Positions 27,134 through 29,720 of a stretch of 64,000 bases of DNA are shown here, in pieces; the stretch's first letter is position 1, and every line of letters starts with the position of its first letter. Source of the DNA: Candidatus Bathyarchaeia archaeon (lineage in GTDB: Archaea > Thermoproteota > Bathyarchaeia > Bathyarchaeales > Bathycorpusculaceae); the NCBI GenBank assembly GCA_038727135.1, contig JAVYWL010000001.1:448001-512000 (forward strand), read 5' to 3'. Under the pieces are notes generated by a model, which was not told where the DNA came from, did no database searches, and worked only from the letters and a program-made list of their open reading frames with translations. The translations under genes and the position numbers were made by a program.

Positions 27134-27652
27134 TTATTTTTGCTTATGTTTATTCACCGTGAAGCGTAACCGCTTAAAAATCTCTTCAAAGCCCAACTTC
27201 TTAAACAGCTTTAAAGATGGAATATTATTAGAGTAAACGTCGGCTTCTACACATTCTGCGCCTTTATCTATGAACCATTCAAGCATAGCCTTTACAAGCG
27301 CCTTGCCGATGCCACGTCTTCTATAGGATTTTTCAACAAAACAGTCGCATATGTAGCCTCTCTTGCCCTTATAAGCCCAAGGCTGGCTAACCCAGCCGAG
27401 GGAGTAGCCAACTATTTTTCCTTCAACTTCGGCGACAAAAACCACCGTGTTTTCGCCTTTTATGTTCTTAAGAATCCAGCTTGGGCTTTGGAACCCGCTG
27501 GGCATGGGTGAAATCATAGAATCCATGGCGCTTTCATCTCTTCCAAGCTTCTTCGAAAGTCTAACAATCTCCTGCAAATCCTCTTCATTAGCGTGTCGAA
27601 TTTTCACATCTACAAGAGCCCCGCTTGACGACTTTGCTTTATTCGATGGCAT
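27134..27652 (-). CDS. GNAT family N-acetyltransferase
   Basis: V..SYRRRGIGKAL, N.PSLKLFKKLGF. Confidence 0.88.
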   Translation of the reverse strand: MPSNKAKSSSGALVDVKIRHANEEDLQEIVRLSKKLGRDESAMDSMISPMPSGFQSPSWILKNIKGENTVVFVAEVEGKIVGYSLGWVSQPWAYKGKRGYICDCFVEKSYRRRGIGKALVKAMLEWFIDKGAECVEADVYSNNIPSLKLFKKLGFEEIFKRLRFTVNKHKQK

Positions 27653-27674
27653 ATAACCACTTCCAAAATCTAGC

Positions 27675-28751
27675 CTACCGCAGCGTCTCGTTGACAACAT
27701 TTAATTTTTTGAGAACCTTGTGGCGTAATTGCGGATGAGTCAAATCCTCATCAAGGTCGATAAACTTAATCCTTAACTTTTTGTCCGCTCCTACTGGCAG
27801 ATTTGCCATGCCAAGCACTTCAAATCGGAACAAGGCGGATTTATACCAGTTGATTCCCGGATTTTTGTCCACTTTAAACCCTAAATTGTAAGCAAATTCT
27901 TCGTAGTTGGCAGTGCCATAATCCATCGGATACACGGAAAAGCCTTGAATAATGTCTGTAATCACACAGTTCATTTTGGCGAGCAATCTCTGAACAGCCA
28001 ACCACTTTTTCAGCGAAGCCTCGTAATTGGTCAAGCCAAAGTAGCCAACACCATTTTCCTTGAGGCAGGCTACACCCCTCATTATGAAAGCCCTTAAGCC
28101 AGAAGTTGTTTCGAGGGGCTCCGAAGAGAATACATCGAACTTTCCTCGAAGTTCTTTTGGCAAGGGTTCAGCCACGTTGTACTCCATGAATTCTATGTTA
28201 AAGCCGTGATCCTTATTGACTTCTTGTAAGAAATCGCCTAACCGCTTGTCAATGTCCAAAACGGTTATGCGGGAAGGCAAACCAGTTAAAGCTAAGGCAA
28301 CGCTCAATAGGTCGTCATCGCCTATCAAAACAATTTCCTTCCCATTCAAGTCCCCATAGTAGTGCATTAAGGCAACCCGCGCAACCACATCTTGCTCAAG
28401 CATGTAACCCTGGAAAAAGTCCAAAGACGGATTCGGTCTTTTTTCAGCAATCTTCTTGAACTTTTCAAGAACCTCTTTGAACCTTGCTTCGGGAATTATC
28501 CGTTTGCCAAGACATGAAGGGCAGATTTTTCCCTCAAAATCTAGACTCTTCGGGTTAATTTTTGCCTTGCCCTTCTCAGTTATGTAGAAGCCGTCCACAT
28601 TGGCGGTTATAAGCCCTTCACTGTTAAGCCTCTTAAGTGTGATCACAAAGTCTCTTAGTGAACAGTTCATTTTGTCAATAAGCTCCCAGAAGGTTCTCCT
28701 CGAAACTGCAAGTTCATGCAGTATTTTTGCTTCTAGTTTCTCCAACAACAT
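27675..28751 (-). CDS. bpsA: N4-bis(aminopropyl)spermidine synthase (branched-chain polyamine synthase)
   Basis: CxxC, FFQGY, IGDDDLLS, LDIDKRL, PLET; AGGAGG SD before ATG 28751. Confidence 0.87.
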   Translation of the reverse strand: MLLEKLEAKILHELAVSRRTFWELIDKMNCSLRDFVITLKRLNSEGLITANVDGFYITEKGKAKINPKSLDFEGKICPSCLGKRIIPEARFKEVLEKFKKIAEKRPNPSLDFFQGYMLEQDVVARVALMHYYGDLNGKEIVLIGDDDLLSVALALTGLPSRITVLDIDKRLGDFLQEVNKDHGFNIEFMEYNVAEPLPKELRGKFDVFSSEPLETTSGLRAFIMRGVACLKENGVGYFGLTNYEASLKKWLAVQRLLAKMNCVITDIIQGFSVYPMDYGTANYEEFAYNLGFKVDKNPGINWYKSALFRFEVLGMANLPVGADKKLRIKFIDLDEDLTHPQLRHKVLKKLNVVNETLR

Positions 28752-29079
28752 CCCTCCTAATAACGCGTTTCTCAACGCTTGTAGGCTGAAACGCCTCCAA
28801 CAGCAATTCAAAAGCCCTCAAGGCTGGACCATCATCCCCGCATGTGAAGATGTCCAAAGCCATATAACCATACTCAGGCCATGTGTGAACGCTCAAATGC
28901 GACTCGCTTAAGAGGTAAATGGCAGAAACCCCATGAGGCTCAAACTGATGAAAACTCGAAGAGACAACATGCAAACCAGATTTAGCAACTACCCTATCCA
29001 AAACCACCCGAAGATCTTCCACTCTTGAAATCTTCCGGGGATCCACACCCCGAAATTCGGCGATAATGTGGATGCCCAT
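28714..29079 (-). CDS. speD: Pyruvoyl-dependent S-adenosylmethionine decarboxylase proenzyme
   Basis: HQFEPHGVS, LSESHLSVHTWPE self-cleavage motif, DIFTCG. Confidence 0.9.
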   Translation of the reverse strand: MGIHIIAEFRGVDPRKISRVEDLRVVLDRVVAKSGLHVVSSSFHQFEPHGVSAIYLLSESHLSVHTWPEYGYMALDIFTCGDDGPALRAFELLLEAFQPTSVEKRVIRRDVVGETRSKNTA

Positions 29080-29113
29080 AGCGAACACCCAACATTATCG
29101 TCGAACTTCGGAA
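29048..29113 (-). promoter_or_regulatory. Long mRNA hairpin sequestering the speD SD and start codon
   Basis: Arms 29083-29113 and 29048-29077: 23 WC + 6 G-U pairs, 1 mismatch, 1 bulge on the mRNA strand. Confidence 0.7.
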
Positions 29114-29240
29114 GCATGTTCCGCGTAGTGCCTTAAACCAACTACGCATACGTTTTCTATCCTCTGAAATTTTCCCGAAAAATTTTCCTTTTATAAATTT
29201 TTTGCCGCAAAAGTCAGCGTTTAAAATGCACAAATGGGCC

Positions 29241-29720
29241 TTAAAGTTTAGACATAAACTCTTTAAACTTTAGCAAATCCATCGGGGCGAGAACTTCCCT
29301 CTTCAGCAACTCACATGGCCACTCTTTGCATTCATCGCAGTATCTAATTCCCCTTTTTGCGGCACATAATTTCCTTTTCGCCAGCCACTTTTCTTTGGCT
29401 TTGAGAAAATTTGAGACGCCGCGCCCCTTAATCTTCTTCATGTTACGCCAGACATCTAAAAACCATGCACTTGACTCTAACCTCTCTGCTTTGAAGAGGT
29501 CAAAAATTTTGCATGGAAAACTTGCGCAGTCTAAGCATATTTTAAGGTTTTTGTTAGCCGCGCATTTGTAGATTTTGCAATATTCTTGGTACTCTCTGCT
29601 CAAGCCTTTGCCGCTTCTGCAGCCTCCACATTCGCCACGGAGTAAGCCGGTGCACTCGCCACAATAAAGACCGCAAGGGGCAACAATGTTCCAGTCTGCT
29701 GTTTTCAAACTGCAAACCAC
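29241..29720 (-). CDS. DUF3795 family Cys-rich protein
   Basis: APCGLYCGEC..CGGC..C..CLDC..FPC. Confidence 0.8.
   Translation of the reverse strand: MVCSLKTADWNIVAPCGLYCGECTGLLRGECGGCRSGKGLSREYQEYCKIYKCAANKNLKICLDCASFPCKIFDLFKAERLESSAWFLDVWRNMKKIKGRGVSNFLKAKEKWLAKRKLCAAKRGIRYCDECKEWPCELLKREVLAPMDLLKFKEFMSKL

Follow-up and report, generated by a model that had tools for sequence, protein, structure and literature searches.

The window, a stretch of 64,000 nucleotides from a Bathyarchaeia genome, carries speD on its minus strand, with a bpsA-like aminopropyltransferase gene overlapping its 3' end and a GNAT acetyltransferase gene overlapping that of bpsA in turn. speD, whose ATG lies at 29079-29077, is the sole PF02675 match in the genome. 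Some SpeD homologues are described as ornithine or arginine decarboxylases (PMC10407285). By its PF02675 match, the ESH self-cleavage serine site in its translation, its context beside bpsA, which would call for dcSAM, and the presence of a separate arginine decarboxylase gene (a PF01862 pyruvoyl enzyme, encoded elsewhere in the genome, as are two PF00491 genes), the gene studied here can be classed as one for S-adenosylmethionine decarboxylase. A bpsA homologue directly follows speD in 61 of 62 archaeal loci, and a GNAT homologue follows bpsA in at least 31 of the 62, counted on short flanks; GNAT is a possible third operon gene. The features of the locus, all on the minus strand, are as follows.

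29189..29205 (-): archaeal promoter, an A-rich BRE-like stretch and a TATA box, about -118 from the speD AUG
29162..29168 (-): transcription start predicted from the TATA spacing, about -86, a pyrimidine-A just before AGAGG
29161..29164 (-): GAGG box, Shine-Dalgarno (SD)-like site of the leader ORF, within the conserved AGAGGAUAGAAA, 15 nt before the ORF's AUG
28994..29149 (-): leader ORF (uORF), AUG 29149-29147, 51 codons, stop UAG 28996-28994
29083..29113 (-): 5' arm of the hairpin, conserved core 29111-29083, stem extendable to 29118 in this genome
29101 (-): A of the conserved A.C mismatch, partner C at 29060
29091 (-): U, the conserved one-base bulge, kept in nearly all aligned rows
29086..29090 (-): SD of speD, GGGUG, -11 to -7, in the 5' arm and paired within the apical stem
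29078..29082 (-): hairpin loop GCUAU, carrying the A and U of the speD start codon
29048..29077 (-): 3' arm of the hairpin, the G of the AUG and speD codons 2-11, extending to 29044 here
28714..29079 (-): speD, S-adenosylmethionine decarboxylase proenzyme, class 1b-like, 121 aa (PF02675, E 1.3e-35)
27675..28751 (-): bpsA-like aminopropyltransferase (PF01861, E 7.8e-72), start codon approximate
27134..27700 (-): GNAT acetyltransferase (PF00583, E 1.7e-22)

The hairpin at the speD start

An earlier note on this DNA had described a long helix burying the SD, part of the AUG and the first codons of speD, with 23 Watson-Crick pairs, 6 G-U pairs, one mismatch and one bulge. A base-by-base count of 29113-29083 against 29077-29048 gives identical figures, the mismatch being A.C and the bulged base a U, and places the G of the AUG and codons 2-11 in the 3' arm. 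Folding, which the note had named as a check, returns this helix as the minimum free energy (MFE) structure of 29040-29200 (-56.8 kcal/mol, z = -5.94; ViennaRNA), and none of 200 shuffles is equally stable. The SD is paired in both the MFE and the consensus fold, and a repeat search recovers the core of the hairpin as an inverted repeat. By itself, the 67-nt hairpin has a folding energy of -38.6 kcal/mol. Windows of 67 nt at 1514 ORF starts of the same genome, which are crude calls, have a mean of -10.5, a standard deviation of 4.05 and a minimum of -26.8 kcal/mol, so that the speD hairpin is about 7 standard deviations more stable than these other gene starts. A 7-bp hairpin that had been noticed further upstream (29146-29122) does fold in this sequence, but is conserved only among the closest relatives. 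The 5-bp hairpin (29109-29123) that the note regarded as competing is also present in the sequence.

Conservation was followed in 61 archaeal loci gathered by an unbiased scan and an N-terminal peptide pattern scan. A start-codon-capped helix of at least 20 pairs is formed in 56 of them, one of 8-13 pairs in four and none in one; in the 11 bacterial loci this helix has 0-11 pairs. The start-capped count was used because a crude count of cross-pairs does not discriminate, giving 18-25 in the bacterial controls. One of the two gathering peptide patterns encodes the 3' arm itself, so the set is biased to conserved 3' arms, though not to complementary 5' arms. At the family level, all 10 speD loci found in 61 genomes fold the hairpin. 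Across loci the stem is imperfect and 27-36 bp long. All lineages have it centred exactly on the SD and AUG, including those whose sequence differs on both sides (rows labelled Aenigmatarchaeota), and the SD-AUG pairing is its best-conserved part.

Covariation, also named in the note as a check, reveals conserved pairing with compensatory changes. Of the 1625 cells in the 61 distinct rows, 89.8% pair, whereas slid registers give 40-49%, and double changes occur in 11 of 27 pairs (73 cells); none of 500 shuffles matches the observed paired percentage or covariation score. Because of relatedness among the loci, and because several of the MAG sets share similar habitats, such counts overstate independence even after clustering. 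The note had also argued for selection at the RNA level, and this is borne out by the alignment: the sense strand has 311 G-U cells and only 40 A.C cells, and the share of cells that can pair is 89.8% for the mRNA strand but 73.1% for its complement. The mismatch position is A.C in 52 of the 61 rows and G-C in four. In codons 2-10 of speD the codon entropy is 0.42 bit, while 44 conserved codons elsewhere in the gene have 1.28 bit (Mann-Whitney p = 4e-5), and the synonymous variants that occur in them (C to U opposite G, A to G opposite U) preserve pairing. An additional metagenome set, collected with an apical-stem pattern, has its lower stems paired in 73.2% of cells against 35-47% in slid registers; it adds little, since new lineages are few and several of the matches are chance ones within unrelated genes (80 of 105 stretches examined, 68 with full flanks, 41 distinct new rows). 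The hairpin is a non-chance, RNA-level element of the mRNA strand.

Pairing over the SD and/or the AUG, one of the features expected of RNA thermometers, is present in both the MFE and the consensus folds as well as across the 61 rows. The predicted probability that the SD is open in this genome rises from 0.02 at 75 C through 0.30 at 85 C to 0.56 at 90 C. Of 55 loci, 52 have a predicted T50 of 93.4 +/- 3.6 C, and the other three stay below half-opening even at 100 C. Half-opening of the SD is therefore predicted at about 85-93 C, on nearest-neighbour parameters extrapolated far above 37 C and at 1 M salt. The G+C content of the tRNAs (65.7%, against 44.5% for the genome) points to a thermophile as the source, for which melting near 85-93 C is plausible. 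Given the high T50, the stem may also stay closed in vivo.

The leader and its open reading frame

The TATA box reported in the earlier note at 29189-29197 is present (TTTATAAAA, 29197-29189) and conserved: in 10 family loci its columns do not vary, most loci of the clade have a TATA-like word between -113 and -126, and the spacing between TATA and GAGG box is also conserved. Both this conserved TATA at -118 and RNA reads agree with the leader of roughly 85 nt proposed in that note. In the RNA run X5, whose reads derive from a relative that is 95-99+% alike, seven read records (four first and three second mates) were found, all with the orientation that transcription of the minus-strand genes would give; one fragment covers the hairpin and extends to about 29154, and 29182-29336 has no reads. 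Runs X3 and X4 gave no reads at a sampling of about 3%, a depth too low to be informative. The speD leader is transcribed and, since the read pair reaches 29154, transcription does not begin downstream of 29083. Contigs of X1, labelled metatranscriptomic but probably DNA, stop at 29169/29170 with no depth past 29212, and cannot prove a start. A reading of the hairpin as terminator of the upstream gene was rejected, because the two are separated by the promoter and a U-tract is absent. Folding of the 5' leader part in 25 representatives gave heterogeneous structures with a mean z of about -1 and no common fold; the GAGG box is paired by a different stem in six lineages (L044, L046, L050, L054, L055, L057).

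This leader contains a conserved, overlapping ORF that the earlier note did not mention and that changes the likely mechanism. Read in another frame than speD, the ORF passes through both hairpin arms and reaches its stop 83 nt into speD; across loci it has about 45-55 codons and its stop lies 59-106 nt inside the gene. Its AUG is about 16 nt from the predicted 5' end of the transcript, and its SD and AUG are unpaired in the MFE structure. The GAGG box is invariant in 10 of 10 family loci and matched by a regular expression in 46 of 59 clade loci, and 12 of the 13 loci without such a match still carry a spanning ORF. Among SD-like words, GAGG is the one most often found ahead of ORF starts in this genome (327 of 1514; the in-gene control has 83). 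Its enrichment falls at -17 to -11, 26 cases being at -15, and that of GGUG at -12 to -9. The 3' end of 16S rRNA, sought for its anti-SD, was not found in the assembly, and SD usage is accordingly taken from this word enrichment.

The frame of the leader ORF is kept open across relatives. In the 46 loci with GAGG and an AUG or GUG, it is stop-free through the variable linker in all 46, compared with 23 and 13 for the two other frames; it is also stop-free in 25 of 25 clusters, where the product of shuffle probabilities is 1.4e-6. Between -33 and +80 it contains eight stops, all at +59 or later, against 37 in the other alternative frame, many of them at +34/+35. An alternative-frame ORF spanning -40 or further upstream to +59 or beyond is found in 58 of 59 loci, compared with 99 of 1510 background starts (6.6%). 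Asp28 is encoded by GAT, which creates the frame-2 stop, in 24 of 25 representatives, whereas Asp76 is GAC in 43 cases and GAT in 17. Stop avoidance, together with an SD-like box at a distance used in this genome, suggests that the leader ORF is translated, and start signals and an open frame retained in this way are what defines a regulatory uORF. The frame is +1 or +2 depending on the lineage, and the encoded peptides are unrelated across the hairpin, with only the first 4-5 codons loosely alike. As the frame switches between lineages, it would be the act of translation that is conserved and not the peptide; a conserved nascent peptide, as in the arrest peptides MAGDIS, SpeFL, ErmCL and TnaC, was not found in the leader ORF. 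Programmed frameshifting from the leader ORF into speD was rejected, given the variation of frame among lineages and an in-frame stop at -18.

Distribution and comparison with known systems

A model of the hairpin, R1, gives one match per genome in 17 of 151 Bathyarchaeia genomes, and every match falls on the 5' end of a PF02675 match. All 17 positive genomes have bpsA, and BpsA-positive genomes in which, from the coordinates, bpsA precedes speD gave no R1 match; the element is found only before a speD that heads a speD-bpsA operon. Two weak R1 matches, L105 and L119, have stems of at most 12 bp. No comparable hairpin was found in the other Bathyarchaeia speD subfamilies (19 loci without R1 match, z from -3.6 to +2.0, differing structures). 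With a single copy per genome, the element was rejected as a mobile-element repeat. It occurs in several phyla together with the gene. A cmscan of 28600-29400 against Rfam at E up to 10 returned only sub-threshold noise resembling microRNA-precursor hairpins. ROSE, fourU and other curated thermometer families gave neither covariance-model nor signature matches in Rfam, and no match was obtained there for SAM, SAM/SAH or other ligand aptamers, the element being a single long helix; nor did the leader show any structure resembling an aptamer for SAM or dcSAM. The earlier note knew of no described archaeal example, and the searches of Rfam and the literature likewise found none. A 2026 review on branched-chain polyamines reports, in its available part, no regulation of speD or bpsA at the level of RNA (PMC12979288).

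The hairpin has the same layout as bacterial RNA thermometers (ROSE, fourU, hsp17-type), in which a cis hairpin with weak G-U pairs, a mismatch and a bulge covers the SD and start codon and opens on heating to permit initiation, and the same would be expected of it. However, it is archaeal, much longer (27-36 bp), made half of coding sequence, without ROSE or fourU signatures, predicted to melt at about 85-93 C and supplemented by an overlapping ORF. A short ORF lying ahead of or across a gene with a locked ribosome-binding site that the leader ribosome must melt is also known from ermCL-ermC, the cat/cmlA leaders and the coat-replicase junction of RNA phages. Unlike ermCL-ermC and cat/cmlA, the archaeal speD leader has two segments rather than four, and its ORF stops 59-106 nt inside the gene and not before it; the switches of frame between lineages mean that it has no conserved arrest peptide.

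Control by a leader uORF would be shared with the eukaryotic form of the same enzyme, AdoMetDC (the mammalian MAGDIS uORF and the plant small uORF of about 50 codons, which the speD leader ORF resembles in length). The eukaryotic uORFs lie upstream of the main AUG and act via conserved peptides and scanning ribosomes. In the archaeal leader, by contrast, the peptide is unconserved, initiation is SD-based and a start-site hairpin is central, a likeness without sign of homology. SpeFL, a leader ORF governing the gammaproteobacterial speF operon of the polyamine pathway, is an ornithine sensor that relies on a conserved arrest peptide and on Rho-dependent termination. The enzyme under its control is another one, and speD shows no sign of either mechanism.

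Models for the control of speD-bpsA

The reading that we favour, at somewhat better than even chances, is that leader and hairpin form a translational lock on speD-bpsA, which would be opened by heat or low polyamine together with ribosomes on the leader ORF. The cis-acting control element would comprise the leader of about 86 nt and the first 31 nt of speD, and serve the speD-bpsA(-GNAT) operon of thermophilic Bathyarchaeia and some other archaea of hot habitats. Its two conserved parts would be the hairpin locking the SD, start codon and codons 2-11, and the out-of-frame leader ORF with its accessible GAGG box. At growth temperature the full hairpin would seldom open because of its stability, making direct initiation at speD rare. 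Ribosomes on the leader ORF would unwind it and, while an arm is covered, leave only the weak, G-U-rich apical stem; capture of the speD site by a new small subunit would then be set by the speed at which this remnant re-pairs, which would depend on temperature and on duplex-stabilising polyamines. SpeD output would thereby rise with heat and fall as product accumulates, as would that of BpsA, whose gene overlaps speD and is probably coupled to it. Both the direction of the leader ORF's effect and the nature of the signal, heat or polyamine, are deduced in this scheme: since a ribosome covering either arm lies no more than about 30 nt from the speD start, steric occlusion could instead make the leader ORF a repressor.

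Two other readings are both unlikely. In one, the hairpin is purely a zipper-type RNA thermometer or a polyamine-stabilised helix, and the overlapping ORF has no control role or is untranslated. The sequestered SD and AUG, the G-U-rich apical stem, the mismatch and bulge conserved as in tuned thermometers, and the steep opening predicted at 80-90 C in a thermophilic-looking genome would suit such a device, as would products that are heat-protective polyamines, as described in part of a review (PMC12979288). It leaves unexplained, however, the frame-specific avoidance of stops over about 150 nt (58 of 59 loci against 6.6% of the background), the GAGG-AUG module and the synonymous constraint that keeps the ORF's stop, and a T50 near 93 C leaves almost no opening at 70-80 C. 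In the other, the leader ORF works in the opposite sense, its ribosomes occluding the speD start, or stalling or queuing with polyamines in the manner of eukaryotic AdoMetDC uORFs or bacterial SpeFL, with the hairpin mainly as pause site or roadblock. The conserved ORF does overlap the speD start out of frame, so that its ribosomes cannot feed speD by termination-reinitiation, and the hairpin sits in mid-ORF; to our knowledge, polyamine-sensing uORFs are the rule for this enzyme in eukaryotes. However, arrest needs a conserved peptide, and here the switch between +1 and +2 frames leaves peptides that differ entirely after the first few residues; nor would a mere roadblock need the SD-AUG pairing, which is the best-conserved part.

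It is decidedly improbable that the helix is an operator recognized by a protein (SpeD, BpsA or a general regulator) through its fixed A.C and bulge. The A.C mismatch is kept in 52 of 61 rows even though, from the codons, a G would pair and suit both ORF frames, and the one-base bulge is kept as well, but tuning of stability would equally lead one to expect both, and no candidate protein is encoded beside the element. Its occurrence in several phyla together with the gene argues for a self-contained device and against such an operator. Long stems are able to stabilise mRNAs. That the helix is a protective 5' stem or a cleavage site acting on mRNA stability or processing, with no role in initiation, we regard as very improbable, with about 50 nt preceding the stem and its exact centring on SD and AUG in every lineage. 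Scarcely credible is a DNA-level palindrome (an operator or mobile-element end) or a chance inverted repeat, for which recovery by the repeat search would speak. Against it stand the strand asymmetry (89.8% against 73.1%), the compensatory changes, the single copy per genome, the position downstream of the promoter and a stability far outside the genome background.

A bolder form of the translational lock, which we put forward only tentatively and judge doubtful, is a homeostat in which the hairpin senses the RNA helix stability that the operon's own products control and ORF ribosomes repeatedly reset it. The products of the operon would be long or branched polyamines derived from dcSAM that control helix stability at high temperature, and the re-pairing rate of the helix would set SpeD-BpsA synthesis; the leader would then be the first natural thermo- and polyamine-sensing mRNA of archaea.

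Natural cis-regulatory mRNA devices are barely documented in archaea. The conserved hairpin, with the leader ORF running through it, has the appearance of such a device for translational control, of a type almost unknown in these organisms. The leader ORF, switching frame and yet always open, is an unusually clean comparative sign of selection on translation and not on the peptide. A thermostable SD-locking module tuned near 85-90 C could serve as a genetic tool in hyperthermophiles. For the organisms themselves, the element provides a concrete and compact hypothesis, of about 150 nt, for how thermophiles may raise long and branched polyamines with temperature.

Structure and stability of the hairpin at the speD start

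In mRNA sense (minus strand), nucleotides 29113-29083 pair with 29077-29048 around a loop at 29082-29078. Counted base by base, the helix has the composition given in the earlier note, namely 23 Watson-Crick pairs plus 6 G-U pairs, interrupted by an A.C mismatch at 29101/29060 and a single bulged U at 29091. The 5' arm contains GGGUG (29090-29086), and the 3' arm contains the G of the AUG and speD codons 2-11. This helix is also the minimum free energy (MFE) structure of 29040-29200 (ViennaRNA; -56.8 kcal/mol, z -5.94), and none of 200 shuffles equals it. The 67-nt hairpin by itself reaches -38.6 kcal/mol; among 1514 ORF starts called crudely in the source genome (G000), the equivalent window averages -10.5 (SD 4.05, minimum -26.8). 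No Rfam family matches the hairpin, only sub-threshold generic hairpin noise being returned.

Features of the speD leader and operon
29197-29189, minus strand: TATA box at -118, conserved across loci
29165-29147, minus strand: block AGAGGAUAGAAA-ACGUAUG, conserved across loci
29079-29077 (ATG) to 28714, minus strand: speD (PF02675, E 1.3e-35)
Overlapping the speD 3' end, minus strand: bpsA-like aminopropyltransferase gene (PF01861, E 7.8e-72)
27134-27700, overlapping the bpsA 3' end, minus strand: GNAT acetyltransferase gene (profile match)

Conservation and distribution of the hairpin

G000 comprises 1.55 Mb in 7 contigs (44.5% G+C) with 36 tRNAs of mean G+C 65.7%, and two sequencing runs in which part of the window occurs (roughly a third of the words sampled from it) carry the label hot springs metagenome. 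This speD is present in 10 of 61 family genomes, G000 counted; the hairpin is folded by all ten loci and is the only consensus structure returned for them by RNAalifold. A wider scan of one genome per species, using two peptide patterns of which one encodes the hairpin 3' arm, yielded 80 loci: 62 archaeal-labelled (mostly Bathyarchaeia, also Hadarchaeales, Aenigmatarchaeota and Nitrososphaeria-labelled MAGs), one cyanobacterial-labelled and 17 of Desulfobacter-type bacteria. The 72 loci with a match from residue 1 (61 archaeal, 11 other) were folded, excluding the 5'-truncated L058 and seven bacterial loci whose match begins at a later residue. A helix capped by the start codon has at least 20 pairs in 56 of the 61 archaeal loci and at least 25 in 51; only 8-13 apical pairs are left in L051, L053, L056 and L070, and none in L064. 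The 11 non-archaeal loci form 0-11 pairs at the speD start.

Covariation in the speD leaders of relatives, a check proposed in the earlier note, is present. In A3, a MAFFT alignment of 61 distinct hairpin rows (the window's and 60 others, leaving out L043 as a duplicate along with L058, L072 and the bacterial rows), 89.8% of the 1625 cells of a 27-pair core are paired; shifting the partner by 1-3 columns lowers this to 40-49%. Double-sided changes occur in 11 of the core pairs (73 cells), and none of 500 column shuffles attains the paired percentage or the covariation score of the real alignment. Aenigmatarchaeota-labelled rows are altered in both arms throughout and retain the pairing. Of the 61 rows, 52 retain the A.C mismatch and four have G-C there; since the mismatched C occupies the second position of an Ala codon, the mismatch is upheld from the 5'-arm side.

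The core holds 311 G-U cells against 40 A.C cells, and pairing is 89.8% on the sense strand versus 73.1% on the antisense strand. This G-U excess and strand difference support an RNA element on the mRNA strand, bearing out the RNA-level selection suggested earlier, and the strand difference disfavours a DNA palindrome or an antisense RNA. Codon choice is narrow within the hairpin: entropy is 0.42 bit at codons 2-10 versus 1.28 bit in 44 other amino-acid-conserved codons (codons 11-80, 60 sequences; Mann-Whitney p 4e-5). Gly2 is GGC in 56/56 and Ala7 is GCC in 54/55, and the minority codons ATT, CAT and GAG are ones that preserve a G-U pair.

R1, a covariance model built from A3, matches 17 of 151 sampled Bathyarchaeia genomes, at a single place in each (G069 gives a second match, which is that place read on the opposite strand) and always abutting the 5' end of a PF02675 match. 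PF02675 was found in 77 of the 151 genomes and BpsA above the Pfam cut-off in 28, including all 17 R1-positive ones. R1 has no match in ten BpsA-positive genomes ordered bpsA then speD, which carry another speD subfamily (coordinates read by eye), nor, at E 0.001, in G075, where the order is speD then bpsA; among other speD subfamilies, 19 more loci were examined and show no comparable start hairpin. In a phylum-level sample R1 was found in 7 of 151 genomes, one alone (G316, 80% complete) lying outside Bathyarchaeia.

In the bpsA-then-speD design (G102, G118, G120, G133, G138, G160, G166, G173, G179), the speD N-terminus is of LLIDLYGC type, without an R1 match. Six genomes (G069, G093, G089, G095, G123, G131) have a second, shorter-matching PF02675 paralogue elsewhere, which may be a neofunctionalised decarboxylase; there the hairpin precedes only the full-length speD copy adjoining bpsA.

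The transcribed leader and its ORF

In archaea the centre of the TATA box usually lies some 26 nt before the transcription start. The box noticed earlier at 29189-29197 is present and conserved, so the leader 5' end is predicted at about 29165. In X5, a metatranscriptome run of which about 5% of the raw reads were sampled, seven read records (four first and three second mates) lie on 28500-29400, all with the orientation that a standard stranded library gives for minus-strand RNA, and none in 29182-29336. One fragment runs across the hairpin and into the leader as far as about 29154; in a close relative at least, speD and the hairpin 5' arm are therefore transcribed together. An 18-nt inverted repeat (29195-29212 and 29355-29372, 89% complementary, 142 nt apart) has one arm in the promoter region of speD and the other within the 3' portion of the upstream DUF3795 gene.

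From a conserved AUG at 29149, a leader ORF of 51 codons runs through the hairpin in a frame different from that of speD to a stop at 28996-28994. Across loci its length is 37-61 codons and its stop lies at +59 to +106, with the frame (+1 or +2) differing by lineage. A regular expression for a GAGG box and a subsequent AUG or GUG picked out 46 of 59 loci. GAGG is the most frequent SD-like word before G000 ORF starts (327/1514; control window, 83) and is enriched at -17 to -11, 26 of its occurrences lying at -15; the MFE structure leaves both the box and the leader AUG unpaired. In the leaders of L044, L046, L050, L054, L055 and L057 (about -86 to -45) the box is paired with a downstream CCUC-containing segment (z -1.4 to -4.9), a further predicted stem, lineage-specific, which would hide the start signals of the leader ORF.

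The linker from start to hairpin is stop-free in the start's frame in 46/46 loci, compared with 23/46 and 13/46 in the other two frames (29 and 53 stops). After clustering at 60% identity the figures are 25/25 representatives versus 12/25 and 9/25, and the product of the per-sequence shuffle probabilities for the 25 representatives is 1.4e-6. From -33 to +80 the leader-ORF frame has 8 stops, none before +59, and is stop-free in 18/25 representatives; the other alternative frame has 37, often at +34/+35, and is stop-free in 4/25. With no box assumed, an alternative-frame ORF starting at or before -40 and ending at or beyond +59 occurs in 58/59 loci versus 99/1510 G000 ORF starts, the exception, L045, ending at +41. 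Asp28 is GAT in 24/25 representatives, making a frame-2 stop, and Asp76 is GAC in 43 and GAT in 17; in a codon reading by eye, an Ala7 codon ending in U would make UGA in frame 2.

The frame of the leader ORF, and hence its peptide, varies between lineages, which makes an arrest-peptide sensor unlikely. As the peptide is not conserved, comparison of these sequences indicates that the selected feature is ribosome passage through the hairpin.

The speD-bpsA operon and its proposed control

The upstream neighbours of speD in the window are the DUF3795 gene and a carbamoyltransferase gene. Downstream, bpsA directly follows and overlaps speD in 61 of 62 archaeal loci (the exception is L036), and its match begins about 30 nt before the speD end in most related loci. 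Because bpsA starts within the last ~35 nt of speD, right after a GGAGG word at 28757-28753 (minus strand, within 28714-28760), synthesis of SpeD and BpsA is probably translationally coupled, and the leader would govern both. A GNAT gene follows bpsA in at least 31 of the 62 loci and could encode a polyamine acetyltransferase; an acetylated branched polyamine is mentioned in passages of a review (PMC12979288).

Certain SpeD homologues are described as ornithine or arginine decarboxylases (PMC10407285). G000 has a pyruvoyl (PdaD-type) arginine decarboxylase gene at a separate place, two agmatinase-family genes and only one SpeD homologue; given the separate decarboxylase, the single homologue and the adjoining bpsA, the speD product is most likely a true AdoMetDC supplying BpsA. 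PF01564 spermidine synthase has no match in G000 (94.7% completeness), and the BpsA-like enzyme may be its sole aminopropyltransferase.

Folding across temperatures, also proposed earlier as a check, predicts that SD opening rises with heat: in the 147-nt leader the values are 0.009 (70 C), 0.02 (75 C), 0.07 (80 C), 0.30 (85 C) and 0.56 (90 C). Half-opening is predicted at 93.4 +/- 3.6 C in 52/55 loci and not by 100 C in the other three, all values being rough, with parameters extrapolated from those for 37 C and 1 M salt. These predictions suggest that the full lock is mostly closed at a thermophile's growth temperature, opening only near the upper range, which is the reason for preferring a two-key model.

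In the two-key model, ribosomes on the leader ORF would melt the long stem, and with one arm covered only a weak apical stem (8 pairs, 3 G-U) would re-form; heat or low polyamine would then decide whether a new small subunit captures the speD SD and AUG. We infer the sign of the leader ORF's effect on speD; ribosomes on it could also repress speD by steric occlusion. Under the two-key model the hairpin over the SD and AUG would work like an RNA thermometer, with the addition of a start site unlocked by a leader ORF, and that ORF parallels the uORF control of eukaryotic AdoMetDC.

None of the curated Rfam families tested includes the element, and no description of a speD hairpin/leader-ORF element was found in the parts of the published literature consulted. 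The speD element is real, conserved and not previously described, a variant on a known type of control element. Branched polyamines stabilise nucleic acids and are required at very high temperature, according to passages of the same review (PMC12979288). As a proposal for the heat or polyamine signal and the direction of control, SpeD-BpsA would go up when helices are unstable and down when polyamines stabilise them.
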